A stretch of 63,265 nt of DNA, counting the filler. It is 4 parts of 4 records of this genome, joined end to end, with 100 filler letters (N's around TTAATTAATTAA, not from the genome) between each part and the next. Parts side by side here need not be neighbours in the genome. Positions count along the whole stretch, not along the records: positions 43,188 to 63,265 come from SRR22947725_1396; 3 more parts are not named here. One strand, 5' to 3'. Positions 13,183-55,956 of the stretch are shown here, in pieces. Below the pieces are notes generated by a model, which did not search any database, was not told where the DNA came from, and saw only the letters and a list, made by a program, of their open reading frames with translations. The first letter of the stretch is position 1, and each line of letters starts with the position of its first letter. Position numbers and translations under genes: made by a program.

Positions 13183-14528
13183 TAACCAAGCTCCTGCTTA
13201 ATAGCCGCGACAAACTCATCTGTCCAGAAATCAACATCTCCCTGGCTCTCGGCTTCAATTAAAACACGGAGCTTACTCTCTGTACCGGAATAACGCAGCA
13301 CACAACGGCCTGTATTCCCCAGCCCCGCCTCACACTCCTTCAAAGTCTTTTGAACTAGGTCTAGAGACTCCAAAGGTGGCTTACTACTAACTGGCAAATT
13401 CGTCAATTGCTGCGGAAAAACATCCATGCACTCTGCTAATTGAGCCAAGGTTTTTCCCGTGCGCTTCATAAGACATAGCACCATGAGACCACCAAGAGCG
13501 CCATCCCCTGTCGAAGCAAAATCTTTAAATATAATATGGCCGGACTGTTCTCCACCTAATACAAAGTTGCCCTCGCGCATGGCCTCTATAACATATCGAT
13601 CACCCACACCAGTCACAACAACATTAATCCCTGCGGCTTCCATAGCTTTATGCAAACCAAGGTTTGTCATTGAAGTAACGACAACCGTATTATTCTTTAG
13701 CTCACCACGCTCTTTCAAGTCCAAAGCACACATGGCAATGATTTTGTCGCCATCAACAATATTGCCTTTTGCGTCACAAAAAATAACCCGGTCTGCATCG
13801 CCATCAAAAGCAATACCACAATCTGCGTTATGAGCCCTCACTAAAGAAGACATCTTTTCTGGATACAAAGCACCACATTCTAAATTGATATTTAAGCCAT
13901 CTGGAGAAGTATTCACTTTAACCACTTCAACACCAAGCTCTTTAAATATTAGGGGATTCAAAAAGTAACCCGCCCCATTCGCACAATCCAAAACGACTTT
14001 AAGTCCCCTTAAATTCTGAGAATCAATACTAGATTTAGTTTTTTCAATATAGCGGCCACCAGCATCATCTATACGATATGCCTTACCCATCTTACTTGGG
14101 TCTTCAGGATTAATATCCTCATCAGACAATAAAATATCCTCAATTTTTTGCTCGACGTCATCAGGTAATTTAAAACCCGATCCATCAAAAATTTTGATAC
14201 CATTATCTTCTGCCGGATTATGTGATGCCGTAATCATAATACCGACATCAGCAATCATTGACTTTGCTAAAAGTGCAACTGCAGGAGTCGGCATAGGGCC
14301 AACCATATAGACATCCATGCCCATACTAATCATACCACTAGTCAAAGCCGTCTCAAGCATATAACCTGAGAGCCGAGTATCCTTACCGATTATAGCTAAA
14401 GTCTTTCCTTTACCCTTAGCTCCAAATGCAGCAGCAATGGCTTTACCAAGGCGTAATGCCAGATCTGGATTAATAGGGTAGACATTTGCCTTGCCGCGAA
14501 TTCCATCTGTACCAAAAAGTTTTCCCAT
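13182..14528 (-). CDS. glmM: Phosphoglucosamine mutase
   Basis: LFGTDGIRG, ITASHNP, FDGDADR, GGEQSGH, RYSGTE. Confidence 0.96.
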   Translation of the reverse strand: MGKLFGTDGIRGKANVYPINPDLALRLGKAIAAAFGAKGKGKTLAIIGKDTRLSGYMLETALTSGMISMGMDVYMVGPMPTPAVALLAKSMIADVGIMITASHNPAEDNGIKIFDGSGFKLPDDVEQKIEDILLSDEDINPEDPSKMGKAYRIDDAGGRYIEKTKSSIDSQNLRGLKVVLDCANGAGYFLNPLIFKELGVEVVKVNTSPDGLNINLECGALYPEKMSSLVRAHNADCGIAFDGDADRVIFCDAKGNIVDGDKIIAMCALDLKERGELKNNTVVVTSMTNLGLHKAMEAAGINVVVTGVGDRYVIEAMREGNFVLGGEQSGHIIFKDFASTGDGALGGLMVLCLMKRTGKTLAQLAECMDVFPQQLTNLPVSSKPPLESLDLVQKTLKECEAGLGNTGRCVLRYSGTESKLRVLIEAESQGDVDFWTDEFVAAIKQELG

Positions 14529-44278: not shown

Positions 44279-45109
44279 ATGAAGTCAGTCAGAGTTATTG
44301 GATTAGGCCTAATGGGTACAAACTTAGGCCTTAAGTTATTAACTCAAGGTATAAAAGTATATGGTAATGATACAGATGAAGAATCTGTTAATAGAGCTTC
44401 CAGCTTGGGCTTTGATATAAATGGTTCCGAGGAGACTGTAGATTTAACAGTTCTTGCTATGCCAATAAATAGCATAGTATCATCTCTTAGCTCAAAAGAG
44501 TTAATAGTAAATACAAAAGCTATCGTTGATATAGGAGGAACAAAAGAAAAAATTTGTAATTTGATGGATAGTTATCAAATCCCATCAATTGGAGGCCATC
44601 CTATGTGCGGGGTTTCTGACAACAGTACTTGGAAGCCAAATCCTGATATATATAATGGTGCAACATTTTTACTATGTGAAACAAAATCAACCGATGCTGA
44701 TTCAAAAGAAATAGTAAAGAAAATGATAGAGTTATTAAGCTCTAAAGAAGTATGGATTGACAGGGTTCAGCACGATGAGATAATTTCAATTACTAGTCAC
44801 CTTCCTCACCTAATAAGCACAGCTCTAGTGGGAGTAGCAAAAGACAACTACGACATAGGCGAGATTATGGGAATGGCAGCTGGTGGCTTTGATGGTGCAA
44901 CTAGGTTAACACGGACTAATCCTGAGATGATTAGAGACATGTACGACACTAACTCTGAAAATATTAATACATTTCTCAAGCACTTTTTGGAAGAGCTAAT
45001 GGAATTAATAGATCTCCAGCAAAGAGATGAACTTTTAAACTATTTAAATAATTCAGTCGAATGGCGTAGGGCACTATCAGACAAATTCGGAGAAAGGCCA
45101 TTAAGTTGA
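44279..45109 (+). CDS. tyrA: Prephenate/arogenate dehydrogenase
   Basis: GLGLMG, DIGGTK, GGHPMCG, HD...ITSHLPH, TRL. Confidence 0.9.
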   Translation: MKSVRVIGLGLMGTNLGLKLLTQGIKVYGNDTDEESVNRASSLGFDINGSEETVDLTVLAMPINSIVSSLSSKELIVNTKAIVDIGGTKEKICNLMDSYQIPSIGGHPMCGVSDNSTWKPNPDIYNGATFLLCETKSTDADSKEIVKKMIELLSSKEVWIDRVQHDEIISITSHLPHLISTALVGVAKDNYDIGEIMGMAAGGFDGATRLTRTNPEMIRDMYDTNSENINTFLKHFLEELMELIDLQQRDELLNYLNNSVEWRRALSDKFGERPLS

Positions 45110-46380
45110 TAAATAATAAACTCTCCGGAGAAGTGACAATTATTGGTGATAAATCTATATCTCACAGAGCTATAATTTTTTGTTCATTAGCAGATGGAAT
45201 CTCAAGAATTTCAAACATACTTATTTCAGGTGACACAACTGCCACTATCGATATATTCCGTTGTCTAGGTGTAAATATTGATATTGTTGAAGGAAATTCT
45301 TTAATAATTCATGGGGTTGGACTGCAGGGTTTATCCAAACCAGATTCTAAATTAAATGCCAAAAGTTCAGGAACTACAGCAAGGCTGTTGACAGGCTTAC
45401 TATCAAGACAAAACTTTACATCAGAGTTAGTAGGAAGTAGTCAACTCACGAAAAGACCTATGGGTAGAGTGGTTGATTTACTAAATGAGAATGGCTCTAA
45501 TATATCTTCTAAGAATGGGTATTTACCAATAAATTTTAAAAAAGGTTTTAGCACTTTCCACTCAATCAACACAAAAGTTCCAAGCGCTCAAGTAAAAAGT
45601 GCGTTGTTAATTGCTTCACTATATCATCAAGAACCCACCGTTATTACAGAAGACATCCCAACAAGAGATCACTCTGAGAGAATGTTGGCCTATATGGGTA
45701 TAGGTATTGTAAGAATGGGTACATCCGTTACTGTCCCCCCCAATCAAAAAATTAAACCAGTCGAACTTGATATTCCATCTGACACATCGTCTGCTGCTTT
45801 TCTTATTGCGCTGGGTATTTTATCCTCTGAAAAAATAGTTTTAAGAAAAGTACTTATAAATGAGAGAAGAATAGGTTTTTTAAAAGTTTTAAAAAGAATG
45901 AACGCAAATATTGAAATAAACAACATAACTGAAATTGGTAATGAAATGGTTGGAGACATAAAGGTTTCAAAGTCAAACCTGGTTGCAACGCAAATAGAGC
46001 CTAGTGAAATTCCAGACCTTATTGATGAGATTCCGATTCTAACATTTATAGCTTCTCAAGCAGATGGCTTAACTACATTAAGAGGAGCAGAGGAGTTGAG
46101 AATAAAAGAATCAGATAGATTAGAAACAATGAAAGACTTCATAGAAGCTTTAAATGGAAAAATAAAAATGTATTCAGATGGATTCGACATTCTAGGAAAA
46201 CAAAACCTAGAAGCTGGAAGTATAAAAACAGAAGATGATCACAGGGTTTCTATGACAGCTCTCATAGCTAATATTTCACTTAATAAAAAAATTACCCCTG
46301 ACAATATTAAGTGTATTGATGATTCATATCCATCATTTTTTCAAGACCTTGCTCTTCTTGGAGGGGAGATTAATGAATAA
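45106..46380 (+). CDS. aroA: EPSP synthase
   Basis: DKSISHRA, SAQVKSA, RDHSERML, IDEIP, ELRIKESDR, DHR. Confidence 0.95.
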   Translation: MINNKLSGEVTIIGDKSISHRAIIFCSLADGISRISNILISGDTTATIDIFRCLGVNIDIVEGNSLIIHGVGLQGLSKPDSKLNAKSSGTTARLLTGLLSRQNFTSELVGSSQLTKRPMGRVVDLLNENGSNISSKNGYLPINFKKGFSTFHSINTKVPSAQVKSALLIASLYHQEPTVITEDIPTRDHSERMLAYMGIGIVRMGTSVTVPPNQKIKPVELDIPSDTSSAAFLIALGILSSEKIVLRKVLINERRIGFLKVLKRMNANIEINNITEIGNEMVGDIKVSKSNLVATQIEPSEIPDLIDEIPILTFIASQADGLTTLRGAEELRIKESDRLETMKDFIEALNGKIKMYSDGFDILGKQNLEAGSIKTEDDHRVSMTALIANISLNKKITPDNIKCIDDSYPSFFQDLALLGGEINE

Positions 46381-47161
46381 ATTAGGAATACTAGGATGGC
46401 CGTTAACTACAACCTATTCACCTCTGATACATAATAAATTATTTGAACTCTCTGGGTTGGAGGGAAGTTATCAAATAATTAAACAAGAAGAAATAAACTC
46501 TCAAATAATATCGGAAATAAATAATGACTTATTAGGCTACAACATCACAATCCCCCATAAAGAAAAAATTATATATCTTCAAAAGTCAGCGATACTAAGT
46601 GCAAGTGTCAAAGATATTGGGGCTTGTAATACGGTATTGAATAGAAACTCAAAAATATATTTATTCAACACTGATTTTTCAGGATTTAAAACATTTTTAA
46701 ACTTGATTCAATATGATTTTTGTAAAAAGTCTGTTTTGATACTTGGATCTGGAGGAAGCGCTAAAGCAATTGCTTACACATTAAAATTACAAAACATAAA
46801 TTATTTCATAGCGAGTAGGCATTCAAATGAAAATACTATTTCATATAATGAAATAGTTAAAATTGGCTCGGACATTGATTTAGTAATTAATACTACACCT
46901 GTAGGCATGCCTCCATTTAATCATGGAGAACTACCAATAAAGTGGAACAATTTACCTAATATAAAAACAGTAATCAATCTTGGGTATGGGTCTAAAAATA
47001 CCTTTCTAAATCAATTTGATGACTCCATTGCTAAATATGATGGATTGGGCATGCTTGTGTGCCAAGCTATAGAGTCATTTAATATATGGACCTCTGCAGG
47101 CTTAAATACAAGTAGAATTTATGGTGAAGTGATAAAGGAATTGGAAAATATAGATGATTAG
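46373..47161 (+). CDS. aroE: Shikimate dehydrogenase
   Basis: SPLIHN, NITIPHKE, NTD..G, LGSGGSA, NTTPVGM, GLGML..QA; start ATG 46373. Confidence 0.92.
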   Translation: MNKLGILGWPLTTTYSPLIHNKLFELSGLEGSYQIIKQEEINSQIISEINNDLLGYNITIPHKEKIIYLQKSAILSASVKDIGACNTVLNRNSKIYLFNTDFSGFKTFLNLIQYDFCKKSVLILGSGGSAKAIAYTLKLQNINYFIASRHSNENTISYNEIVKIGSDIDLVINTTPVGMPPFNHGELPIKWNNLPNIKTVINLGYGSKNTFLNQFDDSIAKYDGLGMLVCQAIESFNIWTSAGLNTSRIYGEVIKELENIDD

Positions 47162-54696: not shown

Positions 54697-55107
54697 CTAT
54701 TTACAGTTTTCGCAGATTCCAGAGTAGATAAAATTATTGTTAATACTTTTAAATTTTGTTTCCTTCATTAATAATTTATTAATTTTTGTAAATGTTTCAA
54801 AGCTTATATCAATGATTCTTTCACAGCTCATACAAATTAAGTGCATGATATTCTCTTCATTTCGAAGGAAATAAATTCCTGAACCGTGTGCTCGGTGCAA
54901 GTGCGCTATTAATCCAATCTGTCCAAGTAATTCTAAAGTTCTATAAACTGTAGCAAGGTCAACTTCAGAGCTCTTCTTAGTTACTTTTTTGTACAATTCG
55001 TCAACCGTGAAGTGTGCATGCCCAGAATTTTCAAGAATTTCACAAATAAGCTCTCTTGATTTAGTAACCCTGTGACCCTTTTTCTTAATCTCGCCTATCA
55101 AGTTCAT
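54697..55107 (-). CDS. Fur-family metalloregulator
   Basis: RVTKSR, HFTVDELY, LATVYRTL, HLICMSC...CENC. Confidence 0.88.
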   Translation of the reverse strand: MNLIGEIKKKGHRVTKSRELICEILENSGHAHFTVDELYKKVTKKSSEVDLATVYRTLELLGQIGLIAHLHRAHGSGIYFLRNEENIMHLICMSCERIIDISFETFTKINKLLMKETKFKSINNNFIYSGICENCK

Positions 55108-55146
55108 ATTCAAAGTATAATTTACTTAACTACAAAAATTATTTAT

Positions 55147-55620
55147 ATGAAAAAATCAATTTTTAGAATACTCAATAGGTATAGCCTTATATATCTGCCA
55201 GTCGGTTGGATTGTTGGGTTGGCAATAATTTTTATAACATTTGAACCATTCGCTGTTCTTTATTTTTTAAGTTTTGTGGTTATTGGTGCTTTTTTTGGTT
55301 TATATTTATTTACTTCTAATAGGGGGCTGGTAATTGATGATCATAATTTTTCTGCAAGCAGGTTTACAATTATTGAGTTTTATTCAGACTATTGACTAGG
55401 TTGTAGTGCATCAAAATTCATAGTTAATGAGTTTAAAAAAAAGAAACCAGATATTCCTGTTGTTTCGGTGAATGCTTCAAAGAAGAATTACAATGACACA
55501 GTAGCAAAGTATAATTTGGAGTATACCCCAACCTATGTTCTTGTAGACAGAAATGCAGAATTGGTTTACAAAAGAGTTGGTAATTTTAAGTTAGAGAAGT
55601 TTGAATCCCTAACAACTTGA
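55147..55620 (+). CDS. Membrane-anchored thioredoxin-fold protein with in-frame UGA (UxxC); probable selenoprotein
   Basis: Read-through of TGA 55393-55395 gives ...IIEFYSDY-U-LGC-SASKFIVNEF...PVVSVN...KYNLEYTPTYVLVDRNAELVYKRVG..., 157 aa, ending flush against csaA. Confidence 0.8.
55414..55434 (+). promoter_or_regulatory. Candidate bacterial SECIS hairpin
   Basis: AAAUUCAU-AGUUA-AUGAGUUU (8 bp including one U-G); G at loop position 2; loop 26 nt after the UGA. Confidence 0.55.
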
Positions 55621-55956
55621 CTAAGCTATTTTATCTCCAATCGAAGCTTTGTCTTCTGGTGATATTAGATTGACTGTATTATCTTTTGAAATTGAGCCTA
55701 AAATTAAGCACTGACTTATAATTGGACCAATTTGTTTGTCTCCTAGGTTGATTACTGCGATACACTTTCTGCCAATTAAAGATTCTTTTTTGTAATTTGT
55801 AATTTGAGCACTTGTTTTTTTAATCCCAATATTCTCACCAAAATTTATCTCAAGAACGTAGGAGGGATTCATAGCTTCAGGAAAATCTTGTACGTCTATT
55901 ATTTCACCAACTCTTATATCAAGTGAAGCGAAATTATTTAAGTTTTCTTTAACCAT
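55621..55956 (-). CDS. csaA: tRNA-binding/chaperone protein CsaA
   Basis: LDIRVG.I, FPEA..PSY.L.INFG..IG.K.TSAQIT.Y, NLG.KQIG. Confidence 0.9.
   Translation of the reverse strand: MVKENLNNFASLDIRVGEIIDVQDFPEAMNPSYVLEINFGENIGIKKTSAQITNYKKESLIGRKCIAVINLGDKQIGPIISQCLILGSISKDNTVNLISPEDKASIGDKIA

Follow-up and report, generated by a model that had tools for sequence, protein, structure and literature searches.

An in-frame UGA of Candidatus Actinomarina almost certainly encodes the active-site selenocysteine of a membrane-anchored thioredoxin-like protein

A 63,265-nucleotide stretch of DNA, hereafter the window, carries a small gene of Candidatus Actinomarina in which an in-frame TGA almost certainly encodes the active-site selenocysteine (Sec, U) of a thioredoxin-like enzyme anchored in the membrane. 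The gene starts with an ATG at 55147 and reaches the TGA at 55393-55395, beyond which the frame stays open for 74 further codons to a terminal TGA at 55618-55620 (Table 1). We consider it very probable that this is one selenoprotein gene of Candidatus Actinomarina, encoding a two-helix anchor and a minimal thioredoxin fold with the motif U-L-G-C, and that Sec is inserted by way of SelB and a hairpin downstream of the UGA. The computational evidence comprises the conserved UGA, the pairing of Sec with Cys in a relative, coding constraint on both sides of the UGA, the fold, the conserved hairpin and the Sec machinery of the lineage. An initial annotation had proposed a hidden selenoprotein of a streamlined actinobacterium, with an open reading frame (ORF) ending at the first TGA and a frame that remains open up to the edge of csaA. 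The sequence confirms this layout, the source is Candidatus Actinomarina, and the selenoprotein reading is supported by the UGA column of the orthologues, the Cys relative, the conservation of the hairpin, the constraint on non-synonymous change and the machinery of the lineage.

Conservation of the UGA codon and of the protein around it

Orthologues were sought in 65 genomes of the family, 64 from the same genus and one (G065) from a sister genus. The nearest genome (G001; 1.1 Mb, 92% complete, with 38% of sampled 31-mers in common with the window) carries the gene as well, 99% identical and with its TGA in place. We found the gene in 55 of the 64 genus genomes and in all 12 that are at least 90% complete, and every one of the 55 copies has exactly one in-frame TGA, over a range of protein identities to the window from 99 to 47%. 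This TGA is codon 83 in 52 orthologues and codon 81 in two that carry an upstream two-residue deletion, and it falls in the same column in one 5′-truncated fragment; no other stop codon or frameshift occurs in any of the 55 copies. Both the start and the stop at codon 158 of the window gene align with those of the orthologues. Among the 54 orthologues in which the terminal stop is seen, 53 end in TAA or TAG; TGA occurs in this place only in G001 and the window. The TGA is confirmed outside the window as well: contigs covering 55000-55800 at 99% identity or more come from three RNA-library runs (three studies) and one DNA run, and none of these four independent contigs, which as contigs cannot prove transcription, differs at the TGA or the hairpin.

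Both halves of the gene are under purifying selection. Averaged over sequence pairs, the ratio of non-synonymous to synonymous differences (pN/pS) comes to 0.33 before the TGA (codons 1-82) and 0.37 after it (codons 84-157), calculated on 50 distinct sequences among 52 full-length ones after the sister-genus sequence, two fragments and the two deletion-bearing sequences had been dropped. Moreover, a comparison of orthologue loci shows higher conservation for this protein than for any of the four neighbouring genes tested; at the G051 locus (L026), for example, its identity to the window is 70%, against 48-64% for the tested neighbours.

At the UGA column, relatives carry Cys. The sister-genus genome, the sole one of its genus examined (71% complete), encodes a 32%-identical homologue with SIY-C-AGC at this column, and the expectation that homologues would show either TGA or Cys at this position agrees with the alignment, in which all 55 genus orthologues have TGA and the sister-genus homologue Cys. 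A search of 1.84 billion representative proteins recovered a wider family of 157-183 residues with the features N-x-[YF]-S, two helices and E-F-x-S-x-Y-C-[VL]-[AG]-C, whose distant full-length members carry C-[VL]-[AG]-C at the UGA column. Two distant members from other lineages, P0115 (YSDYW-VAC) and P0196 (YSDFW-VGC), have W at the first position of the CxxC motif, and the cluster of one of them includes truncated forms of 83 residues; judged by sequence, these are probably independent TGA/Sec forms in other lineages.

The read-through protein, ...IIEFYSDY-U-LGC...TPTYVLVD, is a thioredoxin-fold protein on several measures. When U is read as C, Pfam Thioredoxin (PF00085) matches residues 71-152 at 28.7 bits (cut-off 23.5), a match that spans the TGA, and phmmer alignments to PDB chains place EFYSDY-U-LGC on EFYAPW-C-GHC and DFWAPW-C-GPC, with U on the first Cys of CGHC or CGPC and TPT on the thioredoxin cis-Pro loop. 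These alignments uphold what had been read from the sequence, namely a thioredoxin active site with UGA at the attacking Cys and a cis-Pro strand in TPTYVLVD. An AlphaFold model built with 37 aligned sequences (mean predicted local distance difference test score, pLDDT, 87.5; predicted template modelling score, pTM, 0.80) contains helices at residues 2-11, 13-31 and 36-57, followed by the strands and helices of a thioredoxin fold over residues 73-156; the second and third of these helices correspond to the hydrophobic N-terminal anchor of about two membrane segments that had been suggested. In the same 37 sequences N10, Y12 and S13 are invariant. The best matches of the model in a Foldseek search of PDB are ordinary thioredoxins (E 7e-7, target-normalised template modelling score of about 0.75).

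The protein is distinct from canonical thioredoxin. No NCBIfam model reaches its cut-off for the read-through protein; the best is the canonical TrxA equivalog TIGR01068, at 26.7 bits against 96.8, and a separate canonical TrxA (92 bits) is present in the nearest genome. The Redoxin profile scores 15.1 bits against a cut-off of 26.6, leaving the Redoxin/TlpA family unmatched.

The hairpin downstream of the UGA and its loop in other selenoprotein genes

The full hairpin, AAAUUCAU-AGUUA-AUGAGUUU, lies at 55414-55434. It had been placed 26 nucleotides downstream of the UGA with G at loop position 2; the loop and its G are as described, but 26 nucleotides is the distance to the start of the loop, and the stem begins 18 nucleotides past the UGA. 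Likewise, the proposed AAAUUCAU/AUGAGUUU stem is present, but just 17 of 40 distinct 54-nucleotide orthologue sequences retain its outermost (eighth) A-U pair, so that the conserved stem has seven base pairs. All seven of these pairs form in each of the 40 sequences, the loop reads AGUUR, and RNAalifold independently predicts an identical helix. The pair 55417/55431 varies as U-A in 32 sequences, U-G in four and C-G in four, with the C-G forms in two separate clades, one of which also holds U-G and U-A.

The same region is the point of strongest synonymous constraint in the gene. Synonymous codon identity is 0.95 over codons 89-95, the highest of any seven-codon window, against a gene mean of 0.59; AAA-TTC-ATA-GTT-RAT-GAR is almost frozen at these codons, and the flanking codons vary freely. 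The synonymous term (pS) is 0.19 at the hairpin codons compared with 0.55-0.73 elsewhere in the gene. The homologues thus have the covarying hairpin that the initial annotation had named as supporting evidence to be sought, with seven pairs in 40 of 40 sequences, one covarying pair and a synonymous-site minimum.

In the available part of a 2026 review (PMC13188914), the model of a bacterial selenocysteine insertion sequence (SECIS) has a loop of 3-9 nucleotides, a stem of 4-16 base pairs, G in loop position 1 or 2, a UGA-loop distance of 16-37 nucleotides and a folding energy of -7.5 kcal/mol or lower. The Actinomarina hairpin agrees with this outline in loop size, stem length, spacing and loop G (position 2, then U). 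Its folding energy is -4.7 kcal/mol in 36 nucleotides and -6.5 in 54 nucleotides, with a consensus folding term of -3.7. A search of 55100-55700 against Rfam gave no family near threshold, the best scores (13.5-15.4 bits) belonging to unrelated families. Because of the weak hairpin, scans of the bSECISearch type may miss the gene.

An alternative fold was rejected: in the minimum-free-energy structure of 76 nucleotides (z-score -0.54), the UGA region pairs with the 3′ arm, and this pairing is lost in orthologues, where AGU becomes ACU. Also discarded was a second AGUUR hairpin of the window (46396-46420, at 46408). It lies on the minus strand opposite a pair of overlapping plus-strand ORFs, 45106-46380 and 46316-47161, no ORF runs along the minus strand itself, and we take the match to be due to chance.

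The strongest support for the target hairpin as the putative SelB recognition element comes from the loops: each of the four selenoprotein genes examined has a pentaloop whose second and third positions are G and U, and in three of the genes it reads AGUUR. One of these genes surfaced while we listed the thioredoxin-fold genes of three genomes: it encodes a ResA/TlpA-like lipoprotein with an in-frame TGA in the motif FWADY-U-GIC (L118 / L124; G001:C4:16507-16965, minus strand). In 55 of the 64 genus genomes it has one TGA, whereas the sister-genus form has Cys (FWADYCPTC). The hairpin of this gene, GAGAGG-AGUUR-CCUCUC, has its loop 16 nucleotides past the UGA and also occurs in compensatory forms such as GACAGG/CCUGUC; the stem is unrelated to that of the target gene, and the pentaloop AGUUR is identical. 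Another is a 78-codon SelW/Rdx-like gene with the motif C-V-V-U (L186; G001:C12:28052-28267), present in five of five genomes with one TGA each, whose hairpin UCGUGC-AGUU[A/G]-G[U/C]ACGA has its loop 17 nucleotides past the UGA. This gene probably corresponds to the uncharacterised 78-amino-acid family described in the available part of a preprint on the genus (10.64898/2026.04.03.716425).

For selD, we examined 31 loci (L018, L078-L107), 28 of which gave a usable segment, with 14 distinct sequences. The segments contain a hairpin UUGCNCA-RGUWY-UGN-(bulge)-GCAA with its loop 32 nucleotides past the UGA, and an earlier hairpin with loops of three nucleotides, 16 nucleotides past the UGA, strong covariation and no loop G. 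Each of the two, the 3-nucleotide-loop hairpin and the RGUWY hairpin, is a candidate for the functional selD element.

A joint alignment of 25 hairpins from the target and lipoprotein genes has 96% of its cells paired, and six of seven pairs have changed on both sides, which mostly reflects the difference between the two genes. With the covariance model built from it, the target scores 28.8 bits and the rest of the window no more than 14 bits. In five genomes, only the target and lipoprotein genes reach 25 bits; both are training genes and match by construction, and the informative part of this search is therefore that no other gene matches. Eleven lower-scoring loci (14.7-21.7 bits) were set aside, as they contain no credible in-frame TGA; one of the eleven, L174, resembles the target hairpin, but its frames are full of stops. 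We also rejected the TauE/K07090 gene of G001 as a comparator, its sole TGA being the terminal stop, and an ORF at 13459 of the window, whose frame is open for 44 codons past its TGA and whose Ser/Pro/Thr-rich translation looks non-coding.

Selenocysteine machinery and the weighing of explanations

The four components that the initial annotation proposed to search for (selA, selB, selC and selD) are all present in the nearest genome. The tRNA-Sec of G001 scores 75.3 bits (cut-off 47) and is called tRNA-SeC with anticodon UCA by ARAGORN, selA scores 365.7 bits, and selD scores 357.9 bits and has a UGA of its own at GSG-U-ACK. SelB is a 556-residue elongation factor encoded directly after selA; although it lies below the NCBIfam cut-off, it covers nearly the full SelB model and carries SelB-wing_3, the SECIS-binding wing domain, at 45.9 bits (Pfam cut-off 23.2). 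Across the genus, selD with one TGA was found in 62 of 64 genomes, and all 62 selD genes have the TGA (GxG-U-ACK). In G065 (71% complete), by contrast, we found no selD, no selA over the cut-off (best match 19 bits) and no tRNA-Sec; the top match to tRNA-Sec is a tRNA-Ser gene, of which this genome has three.

A number of observations count against the selenoprotein reading. The gene has no match in nine of the 64 genus genomes, each of which is 60-87% complete, and one orthologue (L070, G020:C29; genome 72% complete) reads U-L-G-F, its resolving Cys codon having changed from TGT to TTT; this Phe at Cys86 may reflect genuine variation or a mistake in the assembly. The covariation of the hairpin rests on one pair, the remaining six being nearly invariant, and part of the constraint in its region could stem from the conserved peptide KFIV(N/D)EF. 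At -4.7 kcal/mol the hairpin is weak and falls short of the -7.5 kcal/mol in the accessible text of PMC13188914, a value that we read as a soft threshold of search programs rather than as a defining property. Its folding z-scores (-0.54 for 76 nucleotides and -2.2 for 36) mean that the single sequence is not statistically unusual, and hairpins of at least six base pairs with an AGUUR loop number two on both strands of the window, against 1.2 expected from shuffles; the hairpin stands out because it is positioned after a conserved TGA and is conserved across species. Its loop lies 26 nucleotides past the UGA, compared with 16-17 in the other two AGUUR genes. Furthermore, SelB of G001 scores 190 bits, below the curated cut-off of 242, the machinery was located in this near relative and in the genus rather than in the window's own assembly, and the predicted membrane orientation of the Actinomarina protein is opposite to that of the distant Cys forms.

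Several other accounts of the UGA can be set against these data. Sec insertion in bacteria competes with release factor 2, and the UGA might mainly end translation or work as a selenium-dependent switch, so that most of the product would be an 82-residue two-helix peptide and the full-length protein would be rare or selenium-conditional. This general competition, the weak hairpin (-4.7 kcal/mol) and the invariant N-x-Y-S motif that the two-helix part has of its own speak for such a role. However, constraint is equally strong in the two halves (pN/pS 0.37 downstream against 0.33 upstream), and the downstream half completes a fold whose active site the UGA interrupts, whereas the truncated product would have no redox motif; we hold this account to be very unlikely, and it would in any case be compatible with selenocysteine at the UGA rather than replace it.

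A reading of the UGA as Trp or Gly, through a changed code or near-cognate read-through, finds some backing in full-length versions in the public catalogue that have W at position 83, but these entries are gene calls made with translation table 4, one of which (P0002) also runs through the true terminal TGA into the antisense strand of csaA. TGA serves as a stop in the window, where it ends 15 of the 63 ORFs of at least 120 amino acids and the frame past those TGAs stays open for at most 44 codons, arguing against an alternative genetic code; with Trp as the attacking residue the CxxC chemistry would be lost, relatives carry Cys at that position, and G001 has a dedicated tRNA-Sec, selA, selB and selD. 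We regard this reading as extremely unlikely. The least probable account, close to negligible in our view, is that the gene is broken, whether as a pseudogene, as two small genes or through an assembly error at the TGA. Standard ORF calling does end at 55395, but 55 species-level genomes, whose copies have 47-99% identity, carry the TGA and show neither a further stop nor a frameshift; purifying selection acts on the part after the TGA, and four independent contigs agree at the TGA. As for two genes, the earliest start codon that the window offers in the downstream frame, a GTG, comes 25 codons after the TGA, and the split would cut the fold at its active site.

Predicted function, related systems and gene neighbourhood

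We favour selenocysteine at the UGA and propose the following mechanism. The C-terminal winged-helix domain of SelB would most likely bind the hairpin at 55415-55433 within the coding sequence and deliver Sec-tRNA(Sec) to the UGA 26 nucleotides upstream, where the ribosome would insert Sec instead of terminating. The N-terminal hairpin of two membrane helices would tether the minimal thioredoxin fold, and the fold and motif suggest that the protein is a membrane-bound thiol-disulfide oxidoreductase. In this chemistry, Sec83 would attack a substrate disulfide or oxidised thiol, Cys86 would resolve the intermediate as a selenenylsulfide, and a reductant would recycle the protein.

Charge distribution bears on the orientation of the domain. 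The Actinomarinaceae sequences examined carry 3-5 Lys/Arg at the N-terminus and 0-1 in the inter-helix loop, whereas the distant Cys forms are mostly reversed, with 0-2 Lys plus Arg at the N-terminus and 2-4 in the loop in 13 of 17. By the positive-inside rule, the thioredoxin domain is predicted, with a slight lean, to face the cytoplasm in Actinomarina, and most of the distant Cys forms are predicted to face outward, which would give opposite orientations within one family.

CcdA is the usual electron supplier of ResA-type oxidoreductases, and it is present in all three genomes tested. With the query used, ResB was not found in any of these three genomes (87-94% complete), a result that lends no support to participation in system II cytochrome c maturation. 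A rather unlikely, speculative scheme is a selenium thiol relay, in which the Sec-thioredoxin, flipped towards the cytoplasm in contrast to its exported Cys relatives, would pass electrons to CcdA, and CcdA would reduce the exported Sec-lipoprotein. Under this scheme the target, lipoprotein and SelW-like genes would have in common a genus-specific AGUUR SECIS read by the divergent SelB, and the variant loop of selD could permit a ranked allocation of selenium between genes.

The closest known selenoproteins are the UxxC thioredoxins and thioredoxin-like proteins of bacteria and ocean metagenomes, a major ocean-metagenome class known since 2005-2008. They likewise have Sec in place of the attacking Cys, an in-gene SECIS after the UGA, a marine setting and Cys homologues; the Actinomarina protein differs in its two-helix membrane hairpin, its invariant N-x-Y-S and its ULGC motif. 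Among the UxxC families given in the available part of the Global Ocean Sampling (GOS) study (PMC2398784) are Trx-like 1 (321 sequences), Trx-like 3 (212 sequences, marine-enriched) and GOS_C. The Actinomarina gene may well be among the UxxC reads of that study. In the available part of the review, Thioredoxin PF00085 UxxC is listed among experimentally verified selenoproteins (PMC13188914).

Among Cys-containing proteins, the nearest likeness is to two-helix CxxC proteins annotated as 'thiol-disulfide isomerase/thioredoxin', one of them from Chloroflexota. They share with the Actinomarina protein a length of 157-183 amino acids, N-x-[YF]-S, E-F-x-S-x-Y-C-x-x-C and T-P-T, and match it over its full length at 24-29% identity, but they have Cys for Sec, an Arg/Lys-rich inter-helix loop and a mostly uncharged N-terminus, from which an exported domain is predicted. 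ResA, TlpA, DsbE and the C-terminal domain of DsbD are also membrane-tethered thioredoxin-fold redox proteins, and weak matches to dsbE (15.7 bits, Actinomarina protein) and DsbD (22.6-26.2 bits, Cys relatives) were seen. In contrast to ResA, TlpA and DsbE, however, the Actinomarina protein has two helices rather than one anchor, and the genome already encodes a separate ResA/TlpA-like Sec lipoprotein. The SECIS of the E. coli fdhF type is, in the available part of PMC13188914, also an in-gene stem-loop downstream of the UGA with G and then U in a small apical loop; unlike it, the Actinomarina stem is AU-rich, has seven base pairs and no bulge, and is much weaker (-4.7 kcal/mol), its AGUUR pentaloop is common to Actinomarina genes, and no Rfam family matches.

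Sec use in Actinomarina is already known from the 2026 preprint 'Actinomarina, resolved' (10.64898/2026.04.03.716425), and UxxC thioredoxin-like selenoproteins are already known from ocean metagenomes. The available part of the preprint reports that 84 complete genomes have selC, selA, selD and a divergent selB, that deep-Sep predicts about five selenoproteins per genome (SelD included), and that Rfam searches for SECIS elements gave no significant match. Its main text names selD, the 78-amino-acid family and a K07090 family, and contains the word 'thioredoxin' 0 times. According to the same source, selD is a selenoprotein in about half of the genomes, whereas here all 62 selD genes have the TGA. 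To this the present analysis adds a SECIS loop signature that extends across the genus, an AU-rich stem too weak to pass the usual energy filter, the change from Sec to Cys in two genes of a sister genus that yielded no Sec machinery, and the charge inversion around the helices.

Candidatus Actinomarina, which is uncultured, is among the smallest and most abundant free-living bacteria of the ocean, and the keeping of a four-gene Sec pathway in a genome of about 1.1 Mb for a handful of proteins implies that those proteins matter greatly. Correct annotation of this gene alters the redox gene inventory of the lineage, and the AGUUR pentaloop gives the genus a concrete SECIS signature where the search with Rfam models in the available part of 10.64898/2026.04.03.716425 had none. 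As had been anticipated, gene callers misread the gene: the public catalogue entries retrieved end at residue 82 or have Trp at position 83. Among the catalogue proteins P0002-P0046, the full-length entries with Trp at the Sec position are translation-table-4 calls on short contigs, and the others stop at residue 82.

The gene sits in a stable neighbourhood. Adjacency to a Fur-family regulator gene was kept in all 29 orthologue loci with that flank, as was adjacency to csaA in 29 of 29, and the Fur-family regulator, a CbiQ gene, csaA and a flavin mononucleotide (FMN)-reductase gene hold their positions in every flanked orthologue locus (30 loci, two of them lacking one flank).

Table 1 Coordinates of the gene, its parts and its neighbours in the window
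Feature	Position	Strand	Details
Complete selenoprotein gene	55147..55620	+	157 codons, Sec at codon 83, followed by the terminal TGA stop
Membrane helix 1 (residues 13-31)	55183..55239	+	AlphaFold helix 13-31; family motif N-x-Y-S (residues 10-13) before it
Membrane helix 2 (residues 36-57)	55252..55317	+	AlphaFold helix 36-57
UGA read as selenocysteine U83, attacking residue of U-L-G-C (55393-55404)	55393..55395	+	Orthologue column, PDB alignment
T127-P128-T129, cis-proline loop	55525..55533	+	T127 and P128 invariant; aligns to the thioredoxin IPT/YPT loop
SECIS-type hairpin	55415..55433	+	7-bp stem (55415-21 with 55427-33), pentaloop AGUUA 55422-26; orthologue pairing, synonymous constraint
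Fur-family regulator gene, divergent	54697..55107	-	PF01475, 99.5 bits
csaA-like gene (tRNA-binding domain), convergent	55621..55956	-	PF01588, 50 bits; zero spacer after the stop codon
TATAAT, likely -10 promoter box	55116..55121	+	26 nt 5′ of the ATG, in the conserved AAGTATAAT / AAGTATATT block; orthologue upstream regions compared

The Fur-family gene most likely starts at ATG 55107 (MNLIGE...) rather than at the TTG 55113 of the ORF listing. Against NCBIfam it scores 80 bits for Fur and 74 bits for PerR, both below the cut-off, so that the subtypes are not separated and the neighbour offers no clue to function. Judging from the upstream sequences, the TATAAT between the two divergent genes is likely the -10 promoter box of the selenoprotein gene, and the conserved AAGTATAAT block (window 55105-55121) sits just outside the Fur-family gene.

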